Shown piece by piece: positions 14,196 to 62,942 of a stretch of 64,000 nucleotides of DNA (the stretch's first letter is position 1; the number at the start of each line of letters is the position of its first letter). Location of the stretch: positions 14,521 through 78,520 of the forward strand of contig CAYFSA010000001.1 of NCBI GenBank assembly GCA_964345605.1, given 5' to 3'. The stretch comes from an uncultured Ectothiorhodospiraceae bacterium (GTDB lineage Bacteria; Pseudomonadota; Gammaproteobacteria; CAYFSA01). A program made the translations under genes and the position numbers. The notes beneath the pieces were generated by a model that was given only the letters and a program-made list of their open reading frames with translations, ran no database searches and had not been told where the DNA came from.

Positions 14196-14230
14196 TAAAG
14201 GCGGACTAAAGCCCGCCCTACTAGATGGCC
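14196..14230 (-). terminator. rho-independent terminator of the dynamin-like GTPase operon
   Basis: On the minus strand a GC hairpin (GGGCGGGCTTTAGTCCGCC) is followed by a T-rich tract (TTTATTATTTTTATT). Confidence 0.5.
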
Positions 14231-14273
14231 AGCTGTGGGTCGATTGAAATCGACCCTACTCCTCGCTCTCGGT
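14199..14273. repeat. hairpin-containing repeat B (GGCGGACTAAAGCCCGCC-CTACTAG-ATGG...GGGTCGATTGAAATCGACCC-TACTCCTCGCTCTCGG); direct copy of repeat A
   Basis: See repeat A. Overlaps the last codons (..TESEE*) of the dynamin-like gene. On the minus strand the first hairpin is followed by TTTATTATTTTTATT, so it doubles as a terminator. Confidence 0.6.
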
Positions 14274-15731
14274 TTGAGCACCAGCCAAGGTGCTCGGGTG
14301 GCTCGTGCCGGAAGGATTGGTAAACTGGTCGTTCAGCCGCTGAACATAGCGATCGGCGGTATCTCGCACAGATTTCAGGATGAGGCGTGAGCGCTTGCTC
14401 CAGCCCCAGGGATTGCGTCGCCACATGGGCCGCCAGAATTCGGTATTCTTGCGGAATGCAGCCACCAGATTGCCGGGCAATTTATCATCCTGCAGGGTAG
14501 CCGCCACTTTGTCCGCCATCAAGTTGCGGAATAGAAAATGAATACCGGCCAGCACCACGACCAGGGCGACCCCTAGGCCGATAGCAAGATTCGGCTGCGA
14601 GCCCAAGCCTTGCACGAAGCCGGCGATCTCCCCAAGGCCCCAGCCATAGTTGATAGCAACCCCACCAAAGACGAGCAAGATCGCCAAGACAGTCAGCCCG
14701 TCACCCGTCAGAGTAAGCTGCCGCCAACGCCGTAAGGCTTGCTGCAAACGCGGCACAACGGCAAATTCAATCTGCTCGCCGATATGGCTTAGCGTACCGA
14801 CGATACGGTAGACACGCTGCACGCCGACATCAGCAATGCGACTGTAAATCAGCTCCATGTCGTGATCACGTTTGCTGCGGAAACGCTCCCGCAGGCTCGC
14901 ATCTTCGATCGGCACCGCTGCCGTATCGCTATAAACGGCATAAAAGCGGCCGGCACTCAAACCATGCTTAGCCAGAGCCCGATGCCAGGCAGCCAGGACA
15001 TCCTCGGCGTTATCCTCGCGGGCAGTCGTGTCGATCTGGTTGAGTACAAACTGGAATTTGCCGAAATCGCCACGGTGATAGACGTTGGCGACCAGATGCT
15101 TAAGGGTATCCTGCATGGCGCCGGGCTCGGGACGGCGGGCATCGAACAGGACCAGCACCAGGTCCGATAAGTCCATGATATAGTCGGTAATACGCAGGGT
15201 CGAATCGCGCTGCTCATCAGCATCAAAGCCCGGCGAGTCGATAATGATCTTGCCACGCAAATGCTCGGCCCTGCAGGTCTTCATCTGGGTGTAGGTGTCG
15301 ACCCGCATGCCCTCACCCGGTGCGACATGCTCAATTTCGTCGGCAATTTGATAAAACGGAAAGCGCGGATCAGAATCCAGGGCCCGGCCAGGCAATTCGT
15401 GCACCTGATCATCCTGGCTAAAACAAATAACAGTGAATTTGTCATCCACCGCTTGGTTACCCGTATCCTGCAGTTTCTTGCCGAGGAAATCATTGATGAA
15501 CGTGGATTTGCCTGCCGAATAAGTACCTAGGACGGTAATGAGCGGCCACCAGGAAATTTTCGTGGCAAAGGACTCGTCAGTTTCCAACAGGCCGAGCTTG
15601 TAGGCAACCCGATCAAGCTCACGAAATTCTTTGGCTGCCTCGACCAGGATGGGATTTTCCAATTGCAGATGCTCGGTCAGGGCATCGAGTCTGAGCTGTA
15701 ACACGCTATTGGCTTGTGACATGCTATTCAC
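14256..15731 (-). CDS. dynamin-family large GTPase with C-terminal membrane hairpin (bacterial dynamin-like protein, LeoB-like)
   Basis: G1 GTYSAGKST, G3 DSPG and G4 NQID motifs. Two hydrophobic helices near residues 340-400. Its start overlaps the stop of the upstream gene by 4 nt. Confidence 0.75.
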   Translation of the reverse strand: MNSMSQANSVLQLRLDALTEHLQLENPILVEAAKEFRELDRVAYKLGLLETDESFATKISWWPLITVLGTYSAGKSTFINDFLGKKLQDTGNQAVDDKFTVICFSQDDQVHELPGRALDSDPRFPFYQIADEIEHVAPGEGMRVDTYTQMKTCRAEHLRGKIIIDSPGFDADEQRDSTLRITDYIMDLSDLVLVLFDARRPEPGAMQDTLKHLVANVYHRGDFGKFQFVLNQIDTTAREDNAEDVLAAWHRALAKHGLSAGRFYAVYSDTAAVPIEDASLRERFRSKRDHDMELIYSRIADVGVQRVYRIVGTLSHIGEQIEFAVVPRLQQALRRWRQLTLTGDGLTVLAILLVFGGVAINYGWGLGEIAGFVQGLGSQPNLAIGLGVALVVVLAGIHFLFRNLMADKVAATLQDDKLPGNLVAAFRKNTEFWRPMWRRNPWGWSKRSRLILKSVRDTADRYVQRLNDQFTNPSGTSHPSTLAGAQTESEE

Positions 15732-16528
15732 CTTGAGTTCGTTATAGTTGGCGAGACACCGTTGCGCGGCTGCGCCGGCCAGGAATCCGCTTGAGGTTGC
15801 TGATTGGCGTTTTGTTCAGCTGCTTGATAGGCCTGTTGCAAAGCCGACATCACCGGCGAAATTGGCACCACCCCAGCTGCCTCGAGCGCGCGTACCAATT
15901 CCCCCGCTTCCCAGCCACGGCCCTGAGCGACCAACCGCGTGGCCGCTTCGGCGTAGGTCTCGGCGGCGTTGTCATAGGCCCCCATAAGGGTATAAAAATT
16001 GCCAAGTTCGCCGACCACATCCGGATCATGCGCCAAGCGCTGCGCCAAGGTTACATAAGCACGCTCCGCGCATTGATGCCGTCCCTGCCAAACGCAAGTC
16101 CGAGCCTGGCGCCACAAACGCCGGATAGCCTCATTTTTTTGGCTAGGCCGTGGCGTCTGTGGGCGCTCAGTGTACGCGGCTGTTCCCATTGGCTGAGACG
16201 TCCGTTGCTGCTCCTGGCGAATCGCCTCTTGCTCGCGCCATTGCTGCCAAGCTTCGCGGCTTGCAGCCTCAGCCGCGGCTTGCGGGGGCTCGGGCTGCCC
16301 TGCTTGCGTCCCGGCGGGCCGCTGCAGCGATGCATCCGAGCCTGGCTCGGACGCCGGCACCTCTGCTTCGTCGCCTTCCACGGCGCGAATCTGATGCAAA
16401 TTGCGCGGGGCCTGGGCTTGAACCGGGTCGGCAAGCGCGAGCAGACCAAACGCCATAACCCCTACACAAACTGCGATACTGTTAGACTGCCCTGAAGTCA
16501 CAGGAAAGTTGTAAGCAATGGATCGCAT
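15728..16528 (-). CDS. secreted protein with Q/A/E-rich coiled-coil region and C-terminal TPR-like helical domain; co-operonic partner of the dynamin-like GTPase
   Basis: Start chosen at the ATG (16528) that gives a signal peptide, MRSIAY...IAVCVGVMAFGLLALADPVQA. The track's longer ORF begins with GTG at 16600. Translationally coupled to the GTPase gene. Confidence 0.5.
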   Translation of the reverse strand: MRSIAYNFPVTSGQSNSIAVCVGVMAFGLLALADPVQAQAPRNLHQIRAVEGDEAEVPASEPGSDASLQRPAGTQAGQPEPPQAAAEAASREAWQQWREQEAIRQEQQRTSQPMGTAAYTERPQTPRPSQKNEAIRRLWRQARTCVWQGRHQCAERAYVTLAQRLAHDPDVVGELGNFYTLMGAYDNAAETYAEAATRLVAQGRGWEAGELVRALEAAGVVPISPVMSALQQAYQAAEQNANQQPQADSWPAQPRNGVSPTITNSR

Positions 16529-16753
16529 CGGGCGAGCTAAGCGCCGCCTCACGCCGCTCAAGCTAAGCCCATGCCCCCATTGCAAGCCGAACCGTCGCAC
16601 AGCGAGTGTGCTCGGCCAGCGTCAACAGTGGCAAGGCCGCCTGAATGGACTGCACTGTGCATCCAACATGGCAAACAATGCATCATTAGACATCAATCAC
16701 TTGGCCCAACAAAAAATAGCCATTTAAGCCGCTACTACCGCACAACCGACAGT

Positions 16754-16909
16754 TTATTGTGCATGCCCATGCACCGCCTCGGCTTCGCTATGCGCGGGCT
16801 TGTTGCCGAGCCAGCTATCAAGATTATCGCGCGCGACCCAGCCATACACCGCAGCGCTCACAATCAGGACGAGCACCAAATGGCGCAATATCCAATAAAC
16901 AACAGGCAT
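16754..16909 (-). CDS. possible small single-TM protein (51 aa)
   Basis: MPVVYWILRHLVLVLIVSAAVYGWV... with a GGGGG SD about 8 nt upstream. Lies between the ParA gene and the TPR/dynamin genes on the same strand. Weak call. Confidence 0.25.
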   Translation of the reverse strand: MPVVYWILRHLVLVLIVSAAVYGWVARDNLDSWLGNKPAHSEAEAVHGHAQ

Positions 16910-16938
16910 TGAGATACCCCCGTATAGTCGAACTTTTG

Positions 16939-17571
16939 TTATTTGACGAATAGATGCGAATATAAAATCATGCTCAAGCGCATGACCTCGCTATGCGCTG
17001 GACCCTGCGGCTCCAACTCAAAGGCAGCCAGCCCTTCGCTGAAGGCCTCGCGATAGACCGGCCGGTCACACCAGATAGCATCAATGACGTGGACGCTTTT
17101 AAGCTGTTGCAGCGCGGCGCGCGCCTCGGCATTTTCCGGAGCAGCCGGATCAGGATTGGCGCGATTGATAAAGCACAGGTGCTCTGGGGCGCGACTGCCG
17201 AGATTGGCTTCGCGGACAATACTGATAAACCGCTGTAACGACCAAATATCAGCCTGGCTCGGCGGCACCGGCGTCACAACCCGATCGGCCATATTTAAAG
17301 CCAAGCGCAATGCTGGCATATCCGAAGTACCGACATCCACCAAGACTTCCCTGGCGGTTGTTCTGCTCAATTTAACCGCTTGGCGCTCGACTGCCATGGC
17401 AGGCTGGTGGCCTTCCTCCCGGCGGATATCGATCAAATCAGCGAGCGTGGCTTGGGGATCCAGATCGAATAATTGCAGCGGCTGCTGCTGAGCTGCCAGA
17501 TAGGCTGCGATATTGAAAGCTACGGTGCTTTTGCCCGTACCCCCTTTAAGGTTACCGAATACGGTAATCAT
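16939..17571 (-). CDS. orphan ParA/MinD-family P-loop ATPase (no parB nearby)
   Basis: Deviant Walker A, MITVFGNLKGGTGKST. About 210 aa with no N-terminal extension. Start set at the ATG at 17571. Confidence 0.85.
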   Translation of the reverse strand: MITVFGNLKGGTGKSTVAFNIAAYLAAQQQPLQLFDLDPQATLADLIDIRREEGHQPAMAVERQAVKLSRTTAREVLVDVGTSDMPALRLALNMADRVVTPVPPSQADIWSLQRFISIVREANLGSRAPEHLCFINRANPDPAAPENAEARAALQQLKSVHVIDAIWCDRPVYREAFSEGLAAFELEPQGPAHSEVMRLSMILYSHLFVK

Positions 17572-17643
17572 GCAAACAATTCGATTTCTGCGCTCCCCCT
17601 TTGACAAACCGCACATCCCTGTGCAGTGGCAGATTTCAGGCGA

Positions 17644-18042
17644 TTAATAGTCCGCGTTACCGCCGCTGGCTTGGCCGCCACCCTGCTGCGGGGCTTGACC
17701 GGCATAAGGCGCGGGCGCCCCGCCATACGGAGCACCCCGATGAGGTACACCGTAACCGTAGGGCGCATAGCCATAGCCATACGGGCCATAGCCATAGTGA
17801 TCGTAATAATCACCATAACCACGGCCCCAACCGCGACCACTCATATTGAAGTCGAAATCACCAAACATATCACCTAAGCCGTCAGCCCAGCTGTTACTAC
17901 CATAGCCGGGATAGCCGCCCCAGGGGCCACCATAATAGCCAGGATAGCCGCCCCAGGGACCACCCCCCCAGTAGGCGTTTGCCGCACCGGCCGACAGACC
18001 AAGGATTACAGCCAGAGTAATTGCTTTGGTCAGGTTTGTCAT
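17644..18042 (-). CDS. secreted Gly/Tyr/Trp/Pro-rich low-complexity protein (sulfur-globule-protein-like / glycine-rich structural protein)
   Basis: Signal peptide [23 protein letters not shown]. Mature part is rich in [10 protein letters not shown] and [15 protein letters not shown] repeats. SD GGAGG lies upstream of the ATG at 18042. Confidence 0.6.
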
Positions 18043-18144
18043 TGCATCCTCCACTTAAGGAAAATACCCCCGCGGTTAATGACGGCGCATGTGTCGAGGG
18101 CAATCCACACACGCCCGGCAGAACCTCTCAAGCCCATTATGCTA

Positions 18145-21100
18145 TTAATGCTCCAGATCGGCTTTCAAGCGGATACCGCGTTTACCTGATTTCGGTTGGG
18201 TCGCTTGCGAGGACTCGGCGTGAGCCTCGGATGCCGCCGTTTGAGCCGACTTATCTACATAATTGCTCGCTTGCTCAGCTTCTTGTTCAATCGTCGTTGC
18301 CTGCGCAACAGGTGCCGTTGGCGACTTCTCGGCCGCGGCATCTGACGGCTGCGACCAAGCCGATTCCGGCAGCGAGGCACTATCCGGCATGGGTGCCTGG
18401 CCGGTTCGGTGGGTTGCGCTCACGCCACTGCTGCTCGCTTTAGCCGGCTCGGATTGCACAGCCAAAGTTTGCTCGCCCTGGGACAGCGGAGACGGCTGGG
18501 CTGCAGTGCTGGCGGCCTCACCGCTTGCCCCAGACGCCGGCATGGTCTCAGCCGGCTCAATTTGCTTGTCACGCGCGCGGCTCAAGGCCCATACCTGCTT
18601 TACGCCCCAACGCAGCAAATAAAATATACCCTGGGCTATCAGGCCGATATAGATCGCCACAGTCTTGGCCGTGGCGAGTGCGGCGCTGCGTGAGGATTTG
18701 CGTGTTTCACGCCGCGCTGCCGAATCGCCAGGCCCGGAACCGGCCCCATCATCCGGGCCGCTGGGGCCACTCGGACCCGGACCACTGGGCCCATTACCCC
18801 GGCCCTTGCTCAGTAACGGATCGTTCTCGCAGGGCGTCGGCGCCATCTGACTTGCCGGGCCGGCCAAACAGAAAGCATGGCGTACCGAGACGCAGCCTAA
18901 GGGAATAACCAGCAATGTCAACACGGTCGAAACGATGACACCGAACATCAGGGACACTGCCATCCCCTGGAAGATTGGATCGGCCAAGATCACCGCCGAG
19001 CCGCCGACCAGCGCCAGCGCGGTGATGATAATGGGGCGTGTACGCGCCTTGCAGGCCTGGATCACCGCCTCGGACACCGGTTGGCCATGATCCACTTCGT
19101 GCTTGGCAAAATCCACCAATAAGATAGAGTTACGCACAATAATACCTGCCAGGGCGATGAAGCCGATCATTGACGTGGCGGTGAACTCGGCATTAAACAG
19201 CCAGTGCCCCGGAATAATCCCGATCAAAGTAAGCGGAATCGGCGCCATCACCACCATCGGCAGGATAAAGTTACCGAACTGTGCCACCACCAGAATGTAA
19301 ATCAGCACTAAGGCCCCGGCGAAGGCAATGCCCATATCCCGGAAGGTCTCGTAAGTGACCGTCCATTCGCCACCCCATTCGAAGGCAACATTGGCGCTGG
19401 TATAGTCACTGCTCGGCGGTCCCATCCAGCCGGTTTTGACCGGCTCGCCCGTGGGTGACTCATAGTCTTCGAGCATCTTTTCGACTTCAAGCATGCCATA
19501 AACCGGGGCGGCCAGGCGTCCGGCGGTTTCCGCCGTGACATACTCCAGCGGCCGCAGATCCTTGTGATAAATGACCGGATCCTGTGGGCGCGGTTTAAAA
19601 TAGCCCAATTCCGCCAAGGGGACGGTATCGCCCCGCGCTCGCCCGCCAGCGGTTTGGCCTCCACCATTGCTCACCTGGGTCGCAACCGGCAGCTGCCCGA
19701 TGCGCGAAAACTCATGGCGTATCGATAGCGGCACTTGCAGGACAATCTCGACCGGATCGACCATGCGGCTTTCGAATTTGACATCACCGAGCTCGTAGCC
19801 TCCCATAGCCATCGCCAAGGTCTCGTTGATATCGGCCACACTCACCCCGATCCGCGACGCCTTCTCACGCTGCACCACAAAGTCATAGACCTGGTATTCC
19901 GCTTGCAGGAAATTGTCCTCGTCCGTCAAGTACTGCGCCTTCTCGAACATCTGCGTCAAATCTTCGGCCACGGCAACGAGCGCCTCACGCGGGCCGTACA
20001 CTTCGGCCACCACCGATTGCAGCACGGGCGGCCCGGGCGGCATTTCGACCACTTCGATCCGGGCTCCGGCGGCCGTGGCAATGGGGGTTAAGCGCTCGCG
20101 CACTTCCACCGCGATCTGGTGACTGGTGCGATCAGGCCGGTCGTGCTTGTCGATCAACTGCACTTGGATATCACCCTGCCAGGGATTCTGACGCAGATAG
20201 TAATGGCGCACCAAACCGTTGAAATTATACGGCGAGGCGGTACCGGCATAGGACTGCAGACTGACGACTTCCGGGATTTCCTGGACTTCTTCGGCCAAGT
20301 CCTGAATCACATTGGCCGTGCGCGGCAGCGCGGTACCCTCAGGCATGTTCAGCATCACCTGGAATTCCGGCTTGTTATCCAACGGCAGCATCTTGACCCG
20401 CACATCGGTCGTATAAAATAGCGATACCGAGGCAAAAAAGGCCACGATGACCGCCAGCAAAAACAGGCTGCCTTTCCAGCGGCTTTTGAGCATCGGCGTA
20501 ATCGAGAAGCGGTACAAGCGCTCGTACATCTCGGCCGACCGATGCTCCTGCGAGGCCATCCGGCCAAGTTTGCGCAGACTCGGTTTGAGCAGCATCGCCA
20601 ACCACGGTGTGAACACGAAGGCGGCAAACAGGGAGAAGGCCATGGCCACCGAGCCTAAGGCGGGAATGGGCATCATGTAGGGGCCCATCATGCCGCTGAC
20701 CATCGCCATCGGCAGCAGGGCCGCAATGACGGTGCCGGTCGCCAGGATAGTCGGATTACCGACCTCATCAACCGCCGCCACTGCCGTGGGGGAATCGATC
20801 TCGCTCTTAATCAGCCAGCGTCGGTAGATATTCTCGACCACCACGATAGCATCGTCGACCAGGATGCCGATGGAGAATATCAAGGCGAATAGACTCACCC
20901 GGTCGATGGTAAAGCCCAACACCCAGGCCGAGAACACGGCGACCAGGATAACGATGGGGATAACGACAAGCACCACCGTGGCCGCACGCCAGCCCAGGAA
21001 GTACCAGACCAGGGCGGTCACGATGAAGGTCGCGATCAGCAGCTTCTTGAGCAGCCCGTTAACCTTTTGCTTAGCGGTCTCACCATAGTTGCGGGTTACA

Positions 21101-22200
21101 TCGACCTTGACGTTATCCGGGATAATCCGTCCCTGCAAACTATTGACCTTGTTAATCACATCCTGGGCGACCACCACGCCATTGCTACCCTTCTTCTTAG
21201 CAATCGCCAGCGTGACCGCCGGTGCCCCATTGGCCGAGGCCTGCTGTTCGGCCTGCTCGCCTTCATGACTATGGCCGCCATGCCCATAGGCCGGACCGGT
21301 ATAATGCCGTACGAGCTGATGCGCTTCCCCCGGGCCAAGATAAACATTGGCGACGTCACGCACATAAATGGGTTGGCCGCGATAGGCACCGATTACCAGG
21401 CTCTCGACATCCTCGGCTGTGCGTAAAAACTCGCCGGTATAAAGCTTGAACGTACTGTCGCCGGATTCCATGCGGCCAAGCCCTCGCTCTTTGTTGGCAG
21501 CACGAATCGTATTGGCCAGCTTATCCATGGAAAGCTCGTAGCCGGCGAGCTTTTCCGGTAACACCTCGATACGCAATTGCTCCTGGCGCCCATGCACCAC
21601 GAAGCCTTTATTGATGTTCGGCAGCTCGTTGGCCCGCTGCATGACCTCCAGGGCAATTTGGTGCAGCGTCGCGTCATCGACCTCCTGCGACCAAAAGGTA
21701 AAGGTCACAATAGGCACGTCATTGATGCCTTTGGGCTTGACCAGCGGCTCCGAGGCACCCGGCGGGATCTTGTCCAGATTCGAGGCCAGCTTGTCGTACA
21801 ACTTAACCAGCGACGGGCCTTTCTCTTCGCCGACATCGAACTGCACGGTCACCAGCGCGCGATCGCGCTCGGAAGCCGAATAGACATGATCGACTCCGGT
21901 CAGCTCGTTCATCATGCGCTCGAGCGGCTCGGTGACCAGGCTGGCGACCTGATCGGAGGACCCCCCTGGATACTTCACGAAGATATCCACCATGGGCACA
22001 GAGATTTGGGGATCTTCCTGCCTTGGCGTCAGGGCAATGCCGATCAAACCAGCGACTAGGCTGGCAATCAGAAACAAAGGTGTCAGCGGTGAACGGATAA
22101 ACGCGCCGGCGACCCGTCCGGCGATGCCCAAAGGAGCATCATCGTTCGTTGACGGGCTCGAGGAGGCGGACTGATGCTCGTTGGAATTATTGTCGCTCAT
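18145..22200 (-). CDS. RND-superfamily efflux permease (AcrB/CzcA-like, 12-TM core) with ~300-aa C-terminal low-complexity extension
   Basis: 1351 aa. The first ~1040 aa have the typical RND architecture. The tail carries a GPSGPGPSGPSGP tract, an extra hydrophobic helix (TVAIYIGLIAQGIFYLLRWGV) and an S/A/Q/E-rich segment. Confidence 0.9.
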   Translation of the reverse strand: MSDNNSNEHQSASSSPSTNDDAPLGIAGRVAGAFIRSPLTPLFLIASLVAGLIGIALTPRQEDPQISVPMVDIFVKYPGGSSDQVASLVTEPLERMMNELTGVDHVYSASERDRALVTVQFDVGEEKGPSLVKLYDKLASNLDKIPPGASEPLVKPKGINDVPIVTFTFWSQEVDDATLHQIALEVMQRANELPNINKGFVVHGRQEQLRIEVLPEKLAGYELSMDKLANTIRAANKERGLGRMESGDSTFKLYTGEFLRTAEDVESLVIGAYRGQPIYVRDVANVYLGPGEAHQLVRHYTGPAYGHGGHSHEGEQAEQQASANGAPAVTLAIAKKKGSNGVVVAQDVINKVNSLQGRIIPDNVKVDVTRNYGETAKQKVNGLLKKLLIATFIVTALVWYFLGWRAATVVLVVIPIVILVAVFSAWVLGFTIDRVSLFALIFSIGILVDDAIVVVENIYRRWLIKSEIDSPTAVAAVDEVGNPTILATGTVIAALLPMAMVSGMMGPYMMPIPALGSVAMAFSLFAAFVFTPWLAMLLKPSLRKLGRMASQEHRSAEMYERLYRFSITPMLKSRWKGSLFLLAVIVAFFASVSLFYTTDVRVKMLPLDNKPEFQVMLNMPEGTALPRTANVIQDLAEEVQEIPEVVSLQSYAGTASPYNFNGLVRHYYLRQNPWQGDIQVQLIDKHDRPDRTSHQIAVEVRERLTPIATAAGARIEVVEMPPGPPVLQSVVAEVYGPREALVAVAEDLTQMFEKAQYLTDEDNFLQAEYQVYDFVVQREKASRIGVSVADINETLAMAMGGYELGDVKFESRMVDPVEIVLQVPLSIRHEFSRIGQLPVATQVSNGGGQTAGGRARGDTVPLAELGYFKPRPQDPVIYHKDLRPLEYVTAETAGRLAAPVYGMLEVEKMLEDYESPTGEPVKTGWMGPPSSDYTSANVAFEWGGEWTVTYETFRDMGIAFAGALVLIYILVVAQFGNFILPMVVMAPIPLTLIGIIPGHWLFNAEFTATSMIGFIALAGIIVRNSILLVDFAKHEVDHGQPVSEAVIQACKARTRPIIITALALVGGSAVILADPIFQGMAVSLMFGVIVSTVLTLLVIPLGCVSVRHAFCLAGPASQMAPTPCENDPLLSKGRGNGPSGPGPSGPSGPDDGAGSGPGDSAARRETRKSSRSAALATAKTVAIYIGLIAQGIFYLLRWGVKQVWALSRARDKQIEPAETMPASGASGEAASTAAQPSPLSQGEQTLAVQSEPAKASSSGVSATHRTGQAPMPDSASLPESAWSQPSDAAAEKSPTAPVAQATTIEQEAEQASNYVDKSAQTAASEAHAESSQATQPKSGKRGIRLKADLEH

Positions 22201-22229: not shown

Positions 22230-23357
22230 TTAAGGCATATACCCCGAGGAGGCCCCCGGCGGCGGATTATCCACGATACGGTCGCCGGGCGACAAACCGG
22301 ACATGACAGCGACCCGATCCGGACCGACCTCGCGGCCGAGCCGAACCACACGTAACTGGGAAGTCCCGTCGGTTACTTTCAGCACACTCGGCAAGCTGCC
22401 TTCGAGAATAGCCGAGTGCGGCACCACCACTTGGGCTGGCCCGCCACGCGCTTGGACCGGCAGAACAATATCGGCATACATACCAGGCCCACCGGGTACG
22501 CCGGCCGGCAAATCGAACTTGACGGTCACGGTATGGCGCTGCGGATCGGCCTGCGGATAAATCTGGGCCACGCGGGCATCAACTGGCGAACGACCGGCAA
22601 CATCCAGAAAAGCCCGCACAATCATCCCGACTTCCAGATTATTAATCAGTCGCGTAGGAATGTCGGCCCGAATCCGCAAATAGTCGACATGGGCAAAGCG
22701 CAGCATGGGTTGGCCGGGCTGCACCGTATCGCCGCGCTCGACCAACTTGTCCATGATCACCCCATCGAATGGCGCGATAGAACGGGCATCGCGCAAGGCC
22801 GCATCGATTTCGGCGATAGTCGAACGGGCTTGCTCAACCTGCGCAGCAGCTTGATTGACCGACGTCCAACGGCCATAAATATTGGCACCACGCTCGACAT
22901 CGGGATCGCCGTAACCGGCCACTTCACCTGCCTGGCGAGTGAACATCTTGTCGAATAGCGAGGGCACACCCATGCCGGGTAACTGCTGGACACTCTCCGT
23001 ACTCGGCGAACGCAGTTCGCGATCATACTGAATCTGCGCATTACGCAAGGCATATTGGGCATTGCGCAGCTTGGCGACGGCCGAGCGCCGGCGCGCGCGC
23101 AAATCGTCTTCGTCAATACTGGCAAGCAGATCACCCGCCTGGAAGCGATCGCCCTCTTCGCCGGCGATCATATCGATACGACCGGGAATCTGCGCGGACA
23201 GGGTCACTTCTTTATAGGGAACGACGGTACCCCCCACCACGACCTGACTCCGGTTCTGGACGGTTTCCACGGTAATAACTCGCGGCTCGGCCGCTTGGCT
23301 TACCGAGGTAAAGAAAAGTGTGAGTAAACAAGCAATATTGAACAAGAGAAAACGCAT
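22230..23357 (-). CDS. RND efflux periplasmic adaptor (membrane fusion protein, HlyD family)
   Basis: Signal/anchor MRFLLFNIACLLTLFFTSVSQA followed by biotinyl-lipoyl, coiled-coil and beta-barrel MFP regions. Lies 30 nt upstream of the RND gene. No outer-membrane factor gene is adjacent. Confidence 0.85.
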   Translation of the reverse strand: MRFLLFNIACLLTLFFTSVSQAAEPRVITVETVQNRSQVVVGGTVVPYKEVTLSAQIPGRIDMIAGEEGDRFQAGDLLASIDEDDLRARRRSAVAKLRNAQYALRNAQIQYDRELRSPSTESVQQLPGMGVPSLFDKMFTRQAGEVAGYGDPDVERGANIYGRWTSVNQAAAQVEQARSTIAEIDAALRDARSIAPFDGVIMDKLVERGDTVQPGQPMLRFAHVDYLRIRADIPTRLINNLEVGMIVRAFLDVAGRSPVDARVAQIYPQADPQRHTVTVKFDLPAGVPGGPGMYADIVLPVQARGGPAQVVVPHSAILEGSLPSVLKVTDGTSQLRVVRLGREVGPDRVAVMSGLSPGDRIVDNPPPGASSGYMP

Positions 23358-23648
23358 ATTGATGGTCTCGGGCTTAGGGCATAACCGTAACTGAAAACGC
23401 CGATCCGAAATGAGATACATCGCCTGACCATCCCTGCCGTCGCGGCACTGATCGATGACAGCAGATTGATCGTTGGCAAATATGGGACGTGATCATATCG
23501 AATCCAAGCCGCCAGGCATACCTCTGGTGAAGAATTCCTGCGAATAATACCCGAGCGCCGCGCGCCACGCACCCGCTTGGCTCCGAGACAAGCCTGCGTT
23601 AGCCTTGCGCAATACTGGCGCTAGCGCGCCGCCTCCCGGACCCAAGCC

Positions 23649-55352: not shown

Positions 55353-57539
55353 TTAGCCACCTGCACATACTTCGCAAAACGGTGTACCTGCCTGGGCGGC
55401 ATTGGCCAAAGTTTGTGCCTGTTGCCGCTGATACCCCGCAACTTGAATTGGGTCCAGGCTACGCGGGCTAGTGCTGCGCTCAGCCGCTTGGGTCGTACTT
55501 AGGTCACCTGCTTGCGAAGTAACTGCCGTTTGCGGCTCCTGCGGCGCTATCGGTGCATCGGGAGAGCAACCGGCGCCGCTACCCGCGCTGCCGCCGCTAT
55601 TGATTTTTACCATCGGCCCTGAGATATCAACGCCCAGCGGCCCTACTGTGACGAAGGAACTGCCCGCCTTGATGGTCAGTTGCATGCCCGCTTCGATAAC
55701 GACGTTCATGCCGCCCTTCACATGCACGTTCATGCCGGCATCGACGGCATAATTCATGCCGATCTTATCTTGTCGATCCATACCCGTTTTCGAGGACAAG
55801 CTGCCCTCAATCTTGCTATTGTGATCACCCCCGGCCTTTTGATGTTTGTCACCATCGACCTGTTCGTATTGATCTTCTTTGATTATCAAATGCTTGTGCC
55901 TGGTGACTTGTTCTAATTGATCGTGCGCCACGAGCAGATGCCGATCTTGGCCAACCCATTCCTTGGTGGTGTTTTGGATCCGTATATCCTGGTCTTTTTG
56001 GCCATGAATAAAAATCTCTTCACTGTCTTTTTTATCTTCAAAGCGAATCTCATTAAAACCGCCTCCGCCCTTTGAACTGTTGGTCTTCCAGGTCGTTTTG
56101 GTCTTTTCATCTGGCAAGGGATAAGGCGGCATGGCTTCAGCGTTATATACACGACCGGTGACGATGGGCTTATCGGGATCGCCTTCCAAAAAACTGACAA
56201 TCACTTCCTGGCCGATACGCGGCAACATGATAGCCCCCCAGCCTTTCCCGGCCCAGTTTTGCGACACCCGGATCCAGCAGGAGCTGTTCTCATCTTTCAT
56301 CCCGTAACGATCCCAGTGAAACTGTACTTTCACCCGGCCGTATTGATCCGTCCAGACTTCTTCGCCCGGCGGACCCACCACGGTCGCAGTCTGCGGACCC
56401 TGAATCATAGGCTTGGTTGTCGTTGCCTCAGGCCGATAACTCTCCCTACTGTCAATGGCTGTAAAGGACGTCTTATAATGAGGCTCACCGGCCTCTACGC
56501 CAGCCTGACTCGTTTCAAATGCTTGCGACCCCATCTCATGTCGAGCACTTACCACCAAATATTCACGGTTTTGGGTTTGCCGCGGATGCTCCGTCAGGGT
56601 AAACAAATACCCTACCGCCAAACCACCCACATCGCCCTCTCCCGATACCACTTCGAAATTGGCATGTAACGCTTCGATACGGCGGCGCGCATACTGTTCA
56701 CCATCGGCACGCTCACTGTACAAGCCCGGATAGTCATACATTTCAAAATCCGCCTTTTCATGGTGGCGGATAAATGGGGCGTTGGCGGTTAAATCCGCCT
56801 TGGGTTTGATGAAATAATAGTCATTGAGCACCACCGAACCCGGCAGTACTTGTTTTCGGCAATCGATGTGACTGATATGTTCTTGATGAATAGGGCGATC
56901 AGAGGGACTGCAAGGGATCTCCGAGTAATTCGGGAACGCATCATGGGCACTGTAACTATCGGCTAAAACCAGGATATTCCGGCCATTTTCATGTTTGATG
57001 AAATAATAGATCCCTTCGGCTTCCAATAGGCGGCTCACGAAGGCAAAATCAGTTTCGCGATACTGCACACAGTATTCCCATTGACGATACTCGTTCGTCA
57101 GCGCATTTTCATAATCGGTGAAGCCATGCTCCCGAAACAATTCCATGACGATGGTGGGAATGTTTTTAGCCTGATAAATGCGGCAATCGGTTGTGCGCGT
57201 CAGGAACCACAACCATGGGCGCAAGACCAGTTCGTACGCCGCATACTGCCCCCGCTCGCCGATATAGCGGCATTCGCTGACAAAACCATTGAAATACCGC
57301 TCGCCACCCCGTTCTAACCGATAGCGTAGCGTTACATTCGTGCCAAGCAATGCCTCGAGTTCAATGTCGATGTCGCTGCTCAGGGCCTCGAGTCGAAATT
57401 CGGACAGCCGGCCCAACGCTTCCTGACCCATCACTCGCTGCAACAACAAGACATCTTCACCGAGCACTGTATTGACAGCCATGGATCGATAAGTCTGGGT
57501 CGCACCGGTTTTGCGCAGCTCTGCCATCGCCCTACTCAC
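55353..57539 (-). CDS. vgrG: type VI secretion system tip protein VgrG with ~80-aa C-terminal extension
   Basis: gp27-like and gp5-like (OB-fold) regions, repeated GMN-V-GG beta-helix motifs, then a G/S-rich linker and a unique tail (..PFCEVCAGG). Confidence 0.95.
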   Translation of the reverse strand: MSRAMAELRKTGATQTYRSMAVNTVLGEDVLLLQRVMGQEALGRLSEFRLEALSSDIDIELEALLGTNVTLRYRLERGGERYFNGFVSECRYIGERGQYAAYELVLRPWLWFLTRTTDCRIYQAKNIPTIVMELFREHGFTDYENALTNEYRQWEYCVQYRETDFAFVSRLLEAEGIYYFIKHENGRNILVLADSYSAHDAFPNYSEIPCSPSDRPIHQEHISHIDCRKQVLPGSVVLNDYYFIKPKADLTANAPFIRHHEKADFEMYDYPGLYSERADGEQYARRRIEALHANFEVVSGEGDVGGLAVGYLFTLTEHPRQTQNREYLVVSARHEMGSQAFETSQAGVEAGEPHYKTSFTAIDSRESYRPEATTTKPMIQGPQTATVVGPPGEEVWTDQYGRVKVQFHWDRYGMKDENSSCWIRVSQNWAGKGWGAIMLPRIGQEVIVSFLEGDPDKPIVTGRVYNAEAMPPYPLPDEKTKTTWKTNSSKGGGGFNEIRFEDKKDSEEIFIHGQKDQDIRIQNTTKEWVGQDRHLLVAHDQLEQVTRHKHLIIKEDQYEQVDGDKHQKAGGDHNSKIEGSLSSKTGMDRQDKIGMNYAVDAGMNVHVKGGMNVVIEAGMQLTIKAGSSFVTVGPLGVDISGPMVKINSGGSAGSGAGCSPDAPIAPQEPQTAVTSQAGDLSTTQAAERSTSPRSLDPIQVAGYQRQQAQTLANAAQAGTPFCEVCAGG

Positions 57540-57695: not shown

Positions 57696-59237
57696 TTATT
57701 GTCGCAGCGCCGTAAATACGATTCCTATGACGGGCATACCCATTTCTTGTCGTAATGTGCAAGCATGCCAGTCTTGCAAGGCAAGCCCGCACTGGGCTAG
57801 CACATTGTGCAGATAGTCAAGTGCGTGGCTATACCGCCCATGAGGGTTCAAGTGATATCCCAGGGTGGCCGGCGCCGATAATTGTTCAACCGAACCGGCC
57901 AAACATCCGCCGATTTTCAGTGAACTGGCCACAAAACCGAACAGGGTCTGCAGCGCGCCGAAATAGACCAGGGTATCTGCCGAGACTATAGCATCCAGGC
58001 TTGCTGGCGGTTGCTGCTGAAAAAAGGCGGTCAGTTCCTGCTTGATCAATTCGTCGTAATCACCGCGCAGGCGGGCCTGATCCAACATCGGGCGGGAGAG
58101 ATCCACACCGATTAGCCTTTCAGCGTAGGGCCGCAGGAGTGGACCACAAAGTCCCGTACCGCAACCCGCATCGACGATCGTCATGGCATGATTCGGCGCC
58201 CCCATGCAGCGGGCGAAGGCCTCCACAACCAAATGCGGGGCTTGGTAATCCAAACTGGCCAAACGCCGTTCGAAGCTGTTGGCAAAACCGTCGAACAACG
58301 TCTCGACATAGCGATCATCGGCCTGCGGCGGTATCGCCAAGGCGCCGCAAGCCGCCAACATATGCAGAGCTACTGGATTGCCGGGCTCCTGCTCTGACCA
58401 CTGCTGATAGCAGTGGACTGCCTCCTCCCGGCGACCGCAGGCACTTAGCAACATGCCCAAATAATAATAAGCATTGGTATGTTGGGGATTGATGTCAAGC
58501 GCACGCCGATACGCCGAGATGGCATCTTCCACCAGGCCGCGCTCACGTAAAACGGTAGCCAGCTCGGTATAGGCATCGGCACCCGCTGCCACGGCCCGAC
58601 GATAGATTTGCTGCGCCGCCTCGTGCTGTTGCTGCAGTGCCAGCGCATTACCCAGGTTATGCAGCACTTCCGGCGCTTCTGGCGCCAGTACCAGCGCATG
58701 CTGCAATTGCTCGGTCGCGCCAGGCAAATCTCCCCGCTCCTGCAGTAACCGCCCCAGATTATTGAAGGCCATGGCAAATGACGGCCGCAGTAAAATGGCC
58801 TGACGATAGGCTTGCTCGGCCTCAGCCAAACGTCCCAAGCGCCGCAGCAAAATGCCCAAGTTGTTCCAAACATCTGCAGAGGGGGCGTACTCGAGCCCGT
58901 GTCGATAGGCCAGCTCTGCCTGTTCGAGATTGCCCAAGGTCTGATACACATTGCCTAAATTATTCCAGGCATCGGCATAATCCGGAGACAAGGTGATCGC
59001 CCGTTCCAGATAGTGAATTGCCTGGTCATTGCGCCCCAGCTGATAATGTAATAAGCCAAGAAAATGCAACGCATCGGGCTGCCCGGGACTGTCGGCCAAA
59101 ATCGTTTCATAAATGCGTTTGGCCGCGGCAATTTGGCCTTGCCGCTGGTGCCGCTGGGCAACCGCTAAGGCCTCGCTTATCGGTAGAACAACATCTTCGG
59201 GGGCGGTGGCCATGGCGAAAACCGTGGGTGTTATCAA
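57696..59237 (-). CDS. TPR-repeat protein fused to class I SAM-dependent methyltransferase domain
   Basis: About 8 TPR units (..ALHFLGLLHYQLGRNDQAI..). The C-terminal MTase motif I is IVDAGCGTGLCG. Confidence 0.7.
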   Translation of the reverse strand: MITPTVFAMATAPEDVVLPISEALAVAQRHQRQGQIAAAKRIYETILADSPGQPDALHFLGLLHYQLGRNDQAIHYLERAITLSPDYADAWNNLGNVYQTLGNLEQAELAYRHGLEYAPSADVWNNLGILLRRLGRLAEAEQAYRQAILLRPSFAMAFNNLGRLLQERGDLPGATEQLQHALVLAPEAPEVLHNLGNALALQQQHEAAQQIYRRAVAAGADAYTELATVLRERGLVEDAISAYRRALDINPQHTNAYYYLGMLLSACGRREEAVHCYQQWSEQEPGNPVALHMLAACGALAIPPQADDRYVETLFDGFANSFERRLASLDYQAPHLVVEAFARCMGAPNHAMTIVDAGCGTGLCGPLLRPYAERLIGVDLSRPMLDQARLRGDYDELIKQELTAFFQQQPPASLDAIVSADTLVYFGALQTLFGFVASSLKIGGCLAGSVEQLSAPATLGYHLNPHGRYSHALDYLHNVLAQCGLALQDWHACTLRQEMGMPVIGIVFTALRQ

Positions 59238-60182: not shown

Positions 60183-62942
60183 TCAGGCCGCCTCCTTGGT
60201 GGTGTCGAAACGATAGGCAAACTCACCATCCTGCACTGATAAGCGAACGGCCGATAGCACGGCTCCTGCCGACATATGGGTCAAAAATTCTTGACTGATA
60301 CGCGGCAGCAAGGTATTGGTCAAAATCGCATCGACCACCCGTGCGCCACTTTCAACCTCACGGCAACGCTCCGAGATCAATGCAACCACATCTTCGTCAT
60401 AGCTGAAGCTGACTCGATGATTCTCGCGCACCCGGGAAACAATACGATCCAATTGGAGATGGATAATTCGCCCCAGAATCTCGTCACTGAGCGGATAGTA
60501 AGGCACCACGACCAGCCGCCCCAACAGGGCCGGCGGGAACACCTTGAGCAGCGGTTCCCGCAAGGCCTGAGCAATGCCCTCCGGTTCGGGCATGAGTTCC
60601 GGGTCGCGACACATCCCCATAATCAAATCGGTCCCGACATTGGTCGTCAGCAGAATCAATGTATTGCGAAAGTCGATATGACGGCCCTCGGCATCTTCCA
60701 TCCAACCTTTATCAAAAACTTGGAAAAAGATTTCATGCACATCCGGATGCGCCTTTTCAACTTCGTCCAGCAAGACGACGCTGTAAGGGCGTCGCCGTAC
60801 CGATTCGGTCAATACCCCGCCTTCACCATAACCCACATAGCCCGGCGGTGCGCCTTTTAGGGTAGAGACGGTGTGGGACTCCTGAAATTCACTCATATTT
60901 AGGGTAATGATGTTTTGTTCGCCCCCGTAAAGTGCCTCCGCCAAGGCCAAACCCGTTTCTGTTTTCCCCACGCCAGAGGTACCGGTCAGCATAAACACGC
61001 CAATCGGTTTATTGGGATTGTCGAGCCCAGCCCGCGAGGTCTGCACGCGCCGGGCGATCATATCCAGGGCATGCCGCTGGCCGATTACACGCTTTTCCAG
61101 AGCACCGGCGAGATTCAGCACGGCTTCAATTTCATTTTTCACCATACGGCCGACCGGAATCCCAGTCCAATCCGCCACCACCGAGGCTACCGCCTGGGCA
61201 TCGACACTGGGCAGAATCAACGGCCTCTCGCCTTGCAACACCAATAATTCCTGTTGCCTTCGACGTAATTCGGCGAGCGCTTCTTGACGTTGTGCTGCCG
61301 TCATCCCGGGCTCATCGGCGTGGGCCGCCGCAGCGGCCGTCGACGCTGAGTTTTCAGCATGGCCCCCTTGGTCAGACTGAGGCGGCTCAGCCATCGCCAA
61401 TGCGACACCGGTACCGGCTCGCAAGCATTTGCGCAAATCCAATACGTGTGTCACCAATGCCTGCTCCTGTTGCCAGCGGCCCTCCAATTCATGCAGCTCC
61501 TCGGTTGCCTTGGCCAATGCTGCCGCTACCTGCAATTCCCGCTCACCACCCTCGATACCCATCGCTTGTTCCCTGGCCAGGATGGCTTGTTCAGTTTGCA
61601 AGGCTTCAATCCGTCGACGCACATCTTCGACCGCCGCCGGTACAGCATGCTGGCTCACTGCTACACGGGCACAGGCGGTATCGAGGAGACTGACGGATTT
61701 GTCAGGGAGCTGGCGCGCCGGAATGTAGCGATGGGAAAGCTTAACTGCCGCTTCAATGGCTTCATCGAGCACCTGTATTCGGTGGTGCTGCTCCATGGTT
61801 GATGCCACGCCCCGCATCATGATAATGGCTTTGGCCTCGTCCGGCTCATCGACATTGACAACCTGAAACCGTCGTGTCAGAGCAGGATCTTTTTCGATAT
61901 GCTTTTTGTATTCGGCCCAGGTTGTCGCTGCAATGGTTCTCAATGTCCCCCGCGCCAGGGCCGGTTTGAGCAAATTGGCCGCATCCCCGGTGCCCGCCGC
62001 ACCACCAGCGCCTATCAGGGTATGGGCCTCGTCAATGAACAAAATGATGGGCGTCGGCGAGCCTTGCACTGCGTCGATCATCTGCCGCAAACGTTGCTCG
62101 AATTCACCTTTCATACTCGCCCCGGCCTGCAGCAATCCCACATCGAGCACCCTGACTTGCACCCCCTGCAGGGGCGGCGGCACGTCCTGGGCGGCCACCC
62201 TGGCAGCAAAGCCCTCAACAACCGCGGTCTTGCCCACCCCGGCCTCGCCGGTCAATATCGGATTGTTTTGCCGTCGACGCATCAGAATATCGACGATTTG
62301 GCGGATTTCGGCATCACGGCCGACCACCGGGTCGAGTTCGCCACGGTGAGCGCGGTCGGTCAAATCGACCGTATATTGACTTAATGACGCTTGCGCTGCG
62401 GCTGAGCCTCCCTCCGGCAGAGCGCTTGCCGCCGCTGTGTCGGCATCGCCGGCTACCATTTGCTGTTCCGGTGATTCCTGCACAATTTCATTAAAACGAT
62501 CCGATAAGTCGTCAATCTTGATTTTATCGAATTCCCGGGAAATGGCCGGCAGCGCATTGCGCAAACCCGGAGTTTTCAAAATCCCAACGATCAGATGCCC
62601 GCTGCGTACCTGTTTGTCTTTAAATAACAGCGTCGCGTACACCCAGCCGCGCTCCACGGCCTCCTCAACATGCGAGGACAAATCAGAAATCGATGCCGCG
62701 CCGCGGGGCAAACGGTCCAAGGCCGCCACCATATCCTTGGCCAGTCGCGCCGCGTCCATATCATAAGCACGGCTGATACAATGCAGATCGGAATTTTGTA
62801 ACTGCAATAGCTGATGCAGCCAATGCACGAGCTCGACATAGGGATTGCCACGTAACTTACAAAAGCCGGTGGCGCTCTCGATGGCTTTGAAGGCGAGGCT
62901 ATCGAGCTTGGCAAACAAAGCGGCGCGGCTGATATCGGCCAT
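60183..62942 (-). CDS. clpV: type VI secretion system AAA+ ATPase ClpV (TssH)
   Basis: Clp-N domain. Two AAA+ modules (GEAGVGKT; GTSGVGKTE). 919 aa. Confidence 0.95.
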   Translation of the reverse strand: MADISRAALFAKLDSLAFKAIESATGFCKLRGNPYVELVHWLHQLLQLQNSDLHCISRAYDMDAARLAKDMVAALDRLPRGAASISDLSSHVEEAVERGWVYATLLFKDKQVRSGHLIVGILKTPGLRNALPAISREFDKIKIDDLSDRFNEIVQESPEQQMVAGDADTAAASALPEGGSAAAQASLSQYTVDLTDRAHRGELDPVVGRDAEIRQIVDILMRRRQNNPILTGEAGVGKTAVVEGFAARVAAQDVPPPLQGVQVRVLDVGLLQAGASMKGEFEQRLRQMIDAVQGSPTPIILFIDEAHTLIGAGGAAGTGDAANLLKPALARGTLRTIAATTWAEYKKHIEKDPALTRRFQVVNVDEPDEAKAIIMMRGVASTMEQHHRIQVLDEAIEAAVKLSHRYIPARQLPDKSVSLLDTACARVAVSQHAVPAAVEDVRRRIEALQTEQAILAREQAMGIEGGERELQVAAALAKATEELHELEGRWQQEQALVTHVLDLRKCLRAGTGVALAMAEPPQSDQGGHAENSASTAAAAAHADEPGMTAAQRQEALAELRRRQQELLVLQGERPLILPSVDAQAVASVVADWTGIPVGRMVKNEIEAVLNLAGALEKRVIGQRHALDMIARRVQTSRAGLDNPNKPIGVFMLTGTSGVGKTETGLALAEALYGGEQNIITLNMSEFQESHTVSTLKGAPPGYVGYGEGGVLTESVRRRPYSVVLLDEVEKAHPDVHEIFFQVFDKGWMEDAEGRHIDFRNTLILLTTNVGTDLIMGMCRDPELMPEPEGIAQALREPLLKVFPPALLGRLVVVPYYPLSDEILGRIIHLQLDRIVSRVRENHRVSFSYDEDVVALISERCREVESGARVVDAILTNTLLPRISQEFLTHMSAGAVLSAVRLSVQDGEFAYRFDTTKEAA

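Follow-up and report, generated by a model that had tools for sequence, protein, structure and literature searches.

Organization of the gene cluster

We analysed a stretch of 64,000 nucleotides (the window) from contig CAYFSA010000001.1 of an uncultured Ectothiorhodospiraceae bacterium (assembly GCA_964345605.1), whose minus strand carries seven co-directional open reading frames (ORFs) between 14256 and 23420. In order of transcription they encode a membrane fusion protein (MFP), a resistance-nodulation-division (RND) permease, a protein of the sulfur globule protein (SGP) family, a ParA-type ATPase, a small membrane anchor, a tetratricopeptide repeat (TPR) protein, and a dynamin-like protein (DLP), and a terminator follows the last gene. 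An earlier note on this DNA had described the last five of these genes, all of which are present as minus-strand ORFs where it had placed them; they are the distal part of one larger conserved envelope gene cluster. Its idea that the five might form one unit gains support for the ParA gene, the anchor/TPR pair and the DLP gene, but it had missed the MFP and RND genes, which turned out to be the most consistently linked (43 of 50 loci; see below). The features of the cluster, from its first gene to its end, are:

22230..23420, minus strand: MFP, the periplasmic adaptor of an RND pump and first gene of the cluster (Pfam HlyD_D23, 62.4 bits; HlyD_3, 56.5 bits)
18145..22200, minus strand: atypical RND permease of 1351 aa, an AcrB-type core with a C-terminal extension (Pfam ACR_tran, 488.5 bits)
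18601..18690, minus strand: extra hydrophobic helix 3′ of transmembrane segment 12 (TM12) of the RND permease, aa ~1171-1200 (hydropathy)
18163..18183, minus strand: KRGIRLK, the window copy of the RND terminal peptide (motif in orthologues)
18139..18168, minus strand: sigma-70-like promoter match TTGAAA-18-TAGCAT, directly upstream of the SGP gene (consensus scan, a pattern match only)
17644..18042 (listed ORF to 18054), minus strand: secreted Gly/Tyr-rich protein of the SGP family, 132 aa (PF17228)
16939..17571 (longest ORF to 17616), minus strand: ParA/MinD-family ATPase, 210 aa (Pfam MipZ, CbiA, AAA_31)
16754..16909, minus strand: 51-aa protein with a single TM segment at aa 1-26 (hydropathy; family profile)
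15728..16600, minus strand: ORF of 290 aa with a signal-like/anchor segment, a Q/A/E/P-rich linker and a degenerate C-terminal TPR domain (family profile)
14256..15722 (GTG alternative at 15731, 491 aa), minus strand: hairpin-anchored dynamin-superfamily NTPase, 488 aa (Pfam Dynamin_N)
14514..14717, minus strand: two-helix membrane hairpin of the DLP, aa 339-406 in the 491-aa numbering (hydropathy, predicted by the model)
14198..14219, minus strand: intrinsic-terminator-like hairpin and T-run that closes the cluster (9-bp stem)

The GC content of the cluster (0.55-0.60) is the same as that of its surroundings, and no composition anomaly lies over it. The window matches a contig of 167 kb from a microbial-mat metagenome (JGI 3300012002), and independent assemblies of a second microbial-mat project contain the same genes at 96-100% identity. 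A scan against Rfam found no RNA family within the cluster. For the DLP gene, both the sequence and the public gene calls favour the ATG at 15722 (488 aa), which is preceded by AAGGTGA; the TGA stop codon of the TPR partner sits inside this AAGGTGA, so that with this start the two genes are 5 nt apart. The 4-nt overlap proposed earlier needs the GTG start and is given up, but the tight coupling of the two genes stands. The SGP gene starts at the ATG at 18042 (132 aa), with GGAGG in front of it; the start of the ParA gene is probably the ATG at 17571 (210 aa), which fits the homologues, and that of the TPR-protein gene is likely the ATG at 16528. The terminator-like hairpin lies 37 nt past the DLP stop codon, and its 9-bp stem has 6 GC pairs and is followed by TATTATTTTT.

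Conservation of the cluster across genomes

Relatives of the DLP were sought in one genome per species and turned up in at least 575 genomes, of which the best 80 loci were taken with 8-kb flanks (individual loci are referred to by L numbers); the neighbours were called with tblastn and with iterated hidden Markov models (HMMs) built from the loci themselves. MFP/RND orthologues lie beside the DLP gene in 43 of the 50 loci that have a complete upstream flank, in two gene orders. At 19 loci the genes are co-directional, in the order MFP, RND, secreted proteins, ParA, TPR protein, (a DUF302 protein), (a Met-rich membrane protein) and DLP. At another 40 loci the arrangement is divergent: the DLP gene reads in one direction, and a gene for a 131-aa protein, MFP, RND and, further on, ParA read in the other. 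The ParA gene of the divergent type often falls outside the 8-kb flank, and it was found in both of the two genomes with 10-kb flanks (the isolate Sedimenticola hydrogenitrophicus and Ca. Thiodiazotropha endolucinida), where the order leading away from the DLP gene is 131-aa gene, MFP, RND, secreted proteins, ParA and DUF302. The TPR gene is absent from divergent loci, the DLP gene stays beside the pump, and the genes for the Met-rich membrane protein and the DUF302 protein switch sides between the two operons. The adjacency occurs in two gene orders and has therefore survived rearrangement; adjacency that outlasts an inversion is a stronger sign of functional coupling than inherited synteny alone. 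The named hosts (Sedimenticola, Thiodiazotropha, Thiothrix, Chromatiaceae, Chromatiales, the Escarpia and Solemya symbionts, Thiohalomonadaceae, and Magnetococcales) are thiotrophs, and the genes are co-conserved in many species-level genomes of sulfur-oxidizing Gammaproteobacteria, both free-living and symbiotic.

The same loci bear on a reading of the cluster in which the anchor, the TPR protein and the DLP are a self-contained remodelling trio, and the pump, SGP and ParA genes are a separate operon that tends to lie nearby. It is favoured by locus L005, which keeps the trio without ParA or RND genes in the 3.6 kb available upstream, by the gap of 150-225 nt with four in-frame stops before the TPR gene, by the 40 loci in which the DLP gene diverges from the pump operon, and by the existence of solitary DLPs. 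A separate trio nonetheless seems improbable to us: DLP and pump adjoin in both orientations, the DLP gene remains beside the pump at divergent loci that have no TPR gene, and the Met-rich and DUF302 proteins swap between the two operons. The large ORFs next to solitary DLPs (L013, L053, L054, L070, and L080) were read, by inspection of their sequences, as unrelated housekeeping genes or opposite-strand artefacts.

Other genes recur in these neighbourhoods. A membrane protein of ~190 aa, whose N-terminus is basic and cytoplasmic and whose Met-rich, coiled-coil-like repeat is periplasmic, is encoded at 30 loci (for example, L020 7171-7980, L023 7349-7948, and L090 15745-16311) but not in the window. 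In L089 (1-466), L090 (62-640), L055, L066, L068, L072, and L076, the protein after ParA is a membrane-anchored DUF302 protein (~192 aa); a DUF302 protein of ~191 aa is also encoded within sox clusters that lack soxCD (PMC5037610). The 131-aa protein (MAELFSEEWM...), which has no Pfam match, is always encoded between MFP and DLP in the divergent type (L089 9055-9450, L090 9179-9574, and 29 other loci).

A compact dynamin-like protein with a membrane hairpin

The last gene of the cluster had been described earlier as a dynamin-family GTPase with G1, G3 and G4 motifs and a C-terminal hairpin, and each part of this description was borne out. The protein contains GTYSAGKST (aa 69), DSPG (aa 165), and NQID (aa 231), and it scores 52.4 bits against Pfam Dynamin_N (cutoff 27); its G4 motif is of the form NQxD, where Gln invariantly replaces Lys across the family. 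Hydropathy marks two hydrophobic segments at aa 339-367 and 376-406. An AlphaFold2 model built from a 105-sequence alignment (pLDDT 85.2) replaced one built from 18 sequences (pLDDT 69), for which Foldseek returned no match at E<=1e-3. The newer model shows two N-terminal helices, the G domain, a helix of ~80 residues that leads into the hydrophobic hairpin, and then a C-terminal helix; the hydrophobic segments form a helical hairpin (model helices 363-375 and 377-409), the position of which is kept across the family while its sequence varies. The DLP is predicted to be anchored in the membrane by this two-helix hairpin, with its GTPase domain facing the cytoplasm.

The structures nearest to the model are EHD4, mitofusin and Fzo1, all three of them proteins of membrane tethering, fusion or remodelling, and IniA also appears among its structural neighbours. 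The G-domain motifs and profile score are accompanied by a helical stalk or bundle with fold similarity to solved DLPs, and the model points to a hairpin-anchored protein of the dynamin superfamily, closest to EHD4 and mitofusin and not to LeoA. The family, a compact one of 102 representatives at E<=1e-30 in a set of 1.84 billion proteins, has a conserved C-terminal motif of its own, LND.FTNPSG. Compared with the EHD ATPases, mitofusin/Fzo1, IniA, SynDLP, Campylobacter DLP1/2, and BDLP, the window protein has only ~490 aa; unlike EHD, mitofusin and other bacterial DLPs it has no EH domain, paddle or PH domain and no paired second DLP gene, and it has a conserved link to the RND-ParA operon. 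Distant homologues of the DLP were found in Thalassospira xianhensis (L091), among DNA methylase, AAA and DUF1523 genes, and in Indioceanicola profundi (L092), where the gene adjoins one for a CDP-alcohol phosphatidyltransferase.

The earlier note had likened the protein to short LeoB-like DLPs, had pointed to the link of bacterial dynamins with membrane repair and phage resistance, and had taken its gene as the insertion target of the islet downstream; a Leo-type protein, a role in phage defence and an insertion target are not supported. The structures put EHD4 and mitofusin nearest, the PADLOC match to LeoA is generic and reaches only 29 bits, and the partners of the DLP fit no PADLOC system model. 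The DLP gene is not an insertion target, because its conserved C-terminus is intact and the islet lies beyond the terminator, itself intact. An anti-phage or membrane-repair dynamin with accessory genes (LeoABC-like), set beside a mobile islet, would have in its favour this weak LeoA match, the toxin-antitoxin genes, the IS91-like fragment and the group II intron fragment just downstream, and the Thalassospira homologue among DNA methylase genes. The chance that the cluster is such a system is slight in our view: the partners match none of the PADLOC models, the islet is separated from the cluster by the terminator, and the chromosomal neighbourhood is conserved in more than 40 species, unlike that of defence islands.

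The islet downstream of the DLP gene contains toxin-antitoxin pairs, an IS91-like fragment, a truncated GNAT gene, and a group II intron D1-D4 fragment (RF02005, 13458-13600, minus strand, 50.4 bits against a gathering score of 49). At the far end of the window, the genes at 55353-57539 (minus strand; VgrG-like, with Phage_GPD and Gp5_C) and at 60183-62942 (minus strand; ClpB/ClpV-like AAA+) indicate a putative type VI secretion locus, and a large TPR-methyltransferase gene lies between them (57696-59237). No sulfur-oxidation gene was found among the ten other window ORFs that were scanned against Pfam.

The ParA-type ATPase, the small anchor and the TPR protein

The ParA-type protein has a deviant Walker A motif with the signature lysine (LKGGTGKST), and its matches to Pfam MipZ (50.2 bits), CbiA (45.3 bits), and AAA_31 (39.1 bits) are all above the cutoffs, while the match to the NCBIfam model ParA_partition (NF041546), at 110.6 bits, is below its cutoff of 180. 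Its full-length relatives in the PDB are ParF and ParA of TP228. No gene of a ParB-type family was found among the cluster genes scanned against Pfam and NCBIfam, so the protein is not assigned to a ParABS system and the earlier description of an orphan ParA, with no ParB-like gene adjacent, was right. Orthologues are present at 31 loci and in L089 and L090. In its small size (~210 aa), its deviant Walker A motif and the lack of an adjacent ParB, the protein resembles the ParB-less positioning ATPases of the McdA and ParF types (PMC10241942); unlike these, it has no recognised partner, and its neighbours are membrane and periplasmic proteins. Partners of ParA/MinD proteins act through a positively charged, disordered terminus (PMC10241942), and the only conserved basic disordered peptide near the ParA of the cluster is the C-terminus of the RND permease, not the N-terminus of a small adaptor.

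Between the ParA and DLP genes, most of the co-directional loci encode one protein that consists of an anchor (M..F.RW.L.H and a TM segment), an acidic/Pro/Ala-rich linker, and a TPR domain of ~90 aa, whereas in the window and in its closest relative, L005, the anchor and the TPR protein are two genes. The 51-aa ORF of the window is a real gene: it encodes a single TM segment, is kept in L005 (55% identity) and L076 (44% identity), and matches the N-terminal anchor of the fused TPR proteins (family HMM, E=6e-4). Its identification as a TM ORF and that of its neighbour as a secreted TPR protein had been essentially right in the earlier note, which had missed that the two are one anchored protein elsewhere. 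The window TPR protein has a signal-like hydrophobic segment of its own (aa 38-62). Its own Pfam match is below threshold (TPR_7, 19 bits, E=1.4e-3); the assignment is made because family members pass, for example the orthologue in L077 (TPR_16, 37.7 bits; TPR_2, 35 bits; both above threshold), and the family HMM matches the window protein at E=4e-57. The TPR protein is encoded at 19 loci, always between ParA and DLP. We also considered that the 51-aa ORF and the TPR gene might be one gene broken by a single mutation, and rejected this, given the four in-frame stops between them and the identical split in L005.

An AcrB-type pump with an unusual C-terminal tail

The RND permease has a 12-TM core with two large periplasmic loops and an MFP gene next to it, and its TM4 reads GILVDDAIVVVEN, in which VDDAIVVVEN is the AcrB-type proton-relay motif. 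The ACR_tran domain, the Asp-Asp relay in TM4, and an MFP with HlyD_D23 are the architecture of the hydrophobe/amphiphile efflux (HAE-1) pumps, and the best relatives in the PDB are multidrug-type pumps, including MdtB, MexB, and MexK; the protein is far below the NCBIfam cutoffs for RND pumps (431 bits vs 1250). Orthologues of the MFP gene adjoin the DLP gene at 46 loci, and the RND orthologues are 49-62% identical to the window protein. A heavy-metal (Cus/Czc) pump, to which the Met-rich neighbour at other loci had drawn attention, was rejected on account of VDDAIVVVEN and the multidrug-type PDB and NCBIfam matches.

The core, the periplasmic loops, the TM4 motif and the AcrA-like adaptor beside it are shared with AcrB, MexB and MdtB, but permeases of the window type add an extra helix and a disordered, usually Lys-rich tail with an invariant end peptide. 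A hydropathy peak 20-60 aa past TM12 is found in all of the ~40 full-length orthologues, and the disordered, low-complexity tail is 193 aa long in the median (~150-240) and carries a net charge of +18, again in the median. A positive tail is found in 33 of 39 orthologues, with a basic cluster directly after the extra helix and often with Lys/Ala/Pro repeats. The peptide [KR]RGI[RQK]L[KR] lies at the C-terminus, or a few residues from it, in 46 of 47 RND orthologues (in the window it reads KRGIRLKADLEH). The only orthologue without it is that of L032 (1867-5760, minus strand), whose tail is Arg-rich and nonsense-like and looks frameshifted, which suggests an assembly error or a pseudogene.

Secreted proteins between the pump and ParA genes

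The Gly/Tyr-rich protein of the window matches the Pfam family SGP (PF17228) at 32.8 bits (31.8-32.8), above the cutoff of 26.7. Nine composition-matched shuffles of the mature protein gave no SGP match at E<=10; the match is thus set by the order of the residues and not by their composition, and the likeness to sulfur globule proteins that the earlier note had seen in this protein is upheld. Of 41 database homologues, 37 carry PF17228, and some are named “sulfur globule protein CV1” in their annotation. The signal peptide, as read from the sequence, is made up of a basic n-region and a hydrophobic core with an AxA site, and ends at ANA/YW, so the protein is a predicted Sec-secreted member of the SGP family. 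Like SgpA and SgpB of the Chromatiaceae (PF17228), it combines a Sec-type signal peptide, an extreme Gly/Tyr content, GYG repeats, and a Pfam score above the cutoff. Unlike the sgp genes of Allochromatium vinosum, which are described as separate transcription units (PMC10386293), the window gene is embedded between the RND and ParA genes, and this embedding recurs at seven other loci. The SGP gene contains tandem duplications of 33 nt (17886-17951) and 21 nt (17750-17791), which encode YGYG-type repeats, among others; in the sister assembly L002 there is a small indel at the repeats, and the longest ORF is 138 aa vs 136 aa.

The ORFs between the RND and ParA genes (the slot) encode mostly secreted, low-complexity, Gly/Tyr/Pro-rich proteins. 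An N-terminus like a signal peptide is present in 41 of 55 slot ORFs, their Gly+Tyr+Pro content is 27% vs 15% elsewhere, and FRP-type motifs occur in 17 of the 55 vs 2 of 1039 ORFs elsewhere. At eight loci (the window and seven others) the slot is taken by SGP-family genes, whose products align lengthwise and share an AxAWGG... stretch, and a DUF4412-like periplasmic protein is found at 15 loci. The content of the slot is highly variable, and in L006 and L068 it is empty. Where an SGP-family gene is absent, the slot is filled by a class of Pro/Tyr/Gly-rich secreted proteins in which motifs of the type [YF][RK]F[RK]P recur (L007, L026, L030, L039, L040, L048, L075, L084, L089, and L090); these match no Pfam family and might be coat proteins that have so far escaped recognition. 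Two of the three SGP genes found outside the cluster adjoin Pyr_redox_2 genes (L085 8317-10390; L088 10001-11799), possibly sulfide:quinone reductases.

Sulfur globules are periplasmic and are enveloped by Sgp proteins, and in A. vinosum the sgpD gene adjoins one for a hydrophobe/amphiphile exporter (PMC10386293). The sgpD locus (Alvin_2515) thus resembles the window in having a coat-protein gene beside an exporter gene of this kind, the exporters being compared by description only; unlike the window SGP, SgpD is helix-rich, Pro-spaced, and not of the SGP family, and ParA or dynamin is not mentioned at its locus.

Proposed function of the cluster

Because nearly all of the products belong to the periplasm or the membrane (ParA alone is a predicted soluble protein of the cytoplasm), because secreted proteins of the SGP family recur in the slot, and because the named hosts are thiotrophs, we infer from gene content, conservation and hosts a role in handling sulfur globules. 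Our proposal, which we hold tentatively and at somewhat less than an even chance, is a module for making and managing a periplasmic deposit that has a protein coat and lies at the cytoplasmic membrane; a sulfur globule is its most plausible identity. Published work lends this circumstantial support, with the periplasmic, Sgp-enveloped globules and the exporter gene beside sgpD (PMC10386293), the charged disordered termini of ParA/MinD partners (PMC10241942), and the DUF302 protein of sox clusters without soxCD (PMC5037610). With the help of its adaptor, the AcrB-type pump would draw a hydrophobic species, be it zero-valent sulfur, polysulfane or coat material, out of the membrane and hand it over to the deposit; its task would be to load hydrophobic sulfur or to clear it. 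The SGP would form the coat, which the anchored TPR protein would hold to the membrane. The basic disordered tail of the RND permease, with its [KR]RGIRLK end, would be what engages ParA, and ParA may space the membrane complexes along the nucleoid so that daughter cells inherit them; the EHD/mitofusin-like DLP may act on the cytoplasmic membrane around the growing deposit, by tethering, fusing or reshaping it. A stronger version, which we regard as unlikely, is a dedicated machine for the biogenesis and partition of the periplasmic sulfur globule, in which the modified RND pump would fill an Sgp-coated deposit with hydrophobic sulfur, its basic tail, placed in the cytoplasm, would serve as a “luggage tag” for ParA, and the dynamin would shape or seal a membrane pocket around each globule; if true, this would be the first ParA that partitions a periplasmic cargo through a transmembrane pump.

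Several observations weigh against a sulfur-globule module. On the side of the pump, the window's own RND tail has a net charge of -4 and is not basic, and the predicted location of the tail is ambiguous, since the extra helix, if a true 13th TM segment and not a monotopic anchor, would argue for the periplasm and the basic charge for the cytoplasm. RND pumps normally expel their substrates through an outer-membrane channel, and no outer-membrane factor gene is present in the cluster in the window, L089 or L090, although one could be encoded elsewhere. On the side of the coat, fewer than half of the co-directional loci hold an SGP-family gene in the slot, and in the reciprocal test none of the three other SGP genes had RND, ParA or DLP genes beside it; one of these three is in the metagenome-assembled genome (MAG) of the closest relative, L005. 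On the side of distribution, there is no classical purple sulfur bacterium among the named matches, including those from a search with the DLP of a “Chromatiaceae” MAG; L005, the DLP of which is 71% identical to that of the window, has the anchor, TPR and DLP genes with neither ParA nor RND in the 3.6 kb available upstream, and 7 of the 50 loci with full flanks have solitary DLPs and no pump. Homologues of the DLP (40-43% identity) also occur in the heterotrophic Alphaproteobacteria Thalassospira and Indioceanicola, with unrelated neighbours and no RND or ParA genes, so the DLP itself is not specific to thiotrophs.

The main rival is a general role in efflux and envelope maintenance, in which the pump exports a toxic hydrophobe or amphiphile via an outer-membrane channel encoded elsewhere, the DLP repairs or stabilizes a cytoplasmic membrane under stress, ParA distributes the pumps, and the slot proteins, the SGP among them, are unrelated passengers. 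The AcrB/MexB/MdtB-like pump core with VDDAIVVVEN would suit this role, as would a slot that is variable and sometimes empty, SGP genes that occur outside the cluster too, DLP homologues that live in non-thiotrophs without the cluster neighbours, and IniA among the structural neighbours of the DLP. DynA and IniA are DLPs of membrane repair or stress. Such a role would, however, leave unexplained why the slot is nearly always filled by secreted, low-complexity proteins of a structural type, why SGP-family genes recur in it at eight divergent loci, and what keeps a positioning ATPase, and a tail peptide of a special kind, on a drug pump; moreover, neither a regulator of the drug-pump type nor an outer-membrane factor is encoded in the cluster (window, L089, and L090). 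On balance we consider a general efflux and maintenance function rather unlikely, though it is the alternative to be taken most seriously.

Implications

The only known components of the sulfur globule are the coat proteins SgpA-D, and it has no known transporter, no known positioning factor and no known factor that remodels the membrane (PMC10386293); in the literature searched, we found no description of a dynamin, ParA or RND protein linked with sulfur globules. The components of the cluster all belong to known families, but the combination of an RND with an invariant tail peptide, a ParB-less ParA, secreted Gly/Tyr/Pro-rich proteins and a hairpin-anchored, EHD/mitofusin-like dynamin is described in none of the papers searched, and there is a minority chance that organelles are managed here by a system of a new kind. 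The known range of ParA/MinD cargoes would be extended by an RND pump that ends its long disordered tail in an invariant peptide and always comes with a ParA. The dynamin, being compact, hairpin-anchored and EHD/mitofusin-like, would offer a simple model, in bacteria, of its branch of the superfamily. Should the link with sulfur prove wrong, what remains is a conserved envelope module that had not been described; if it is right, the cluster may give a first genetic handle on how sulfur globules are started, enclosed, fed, and inherited.

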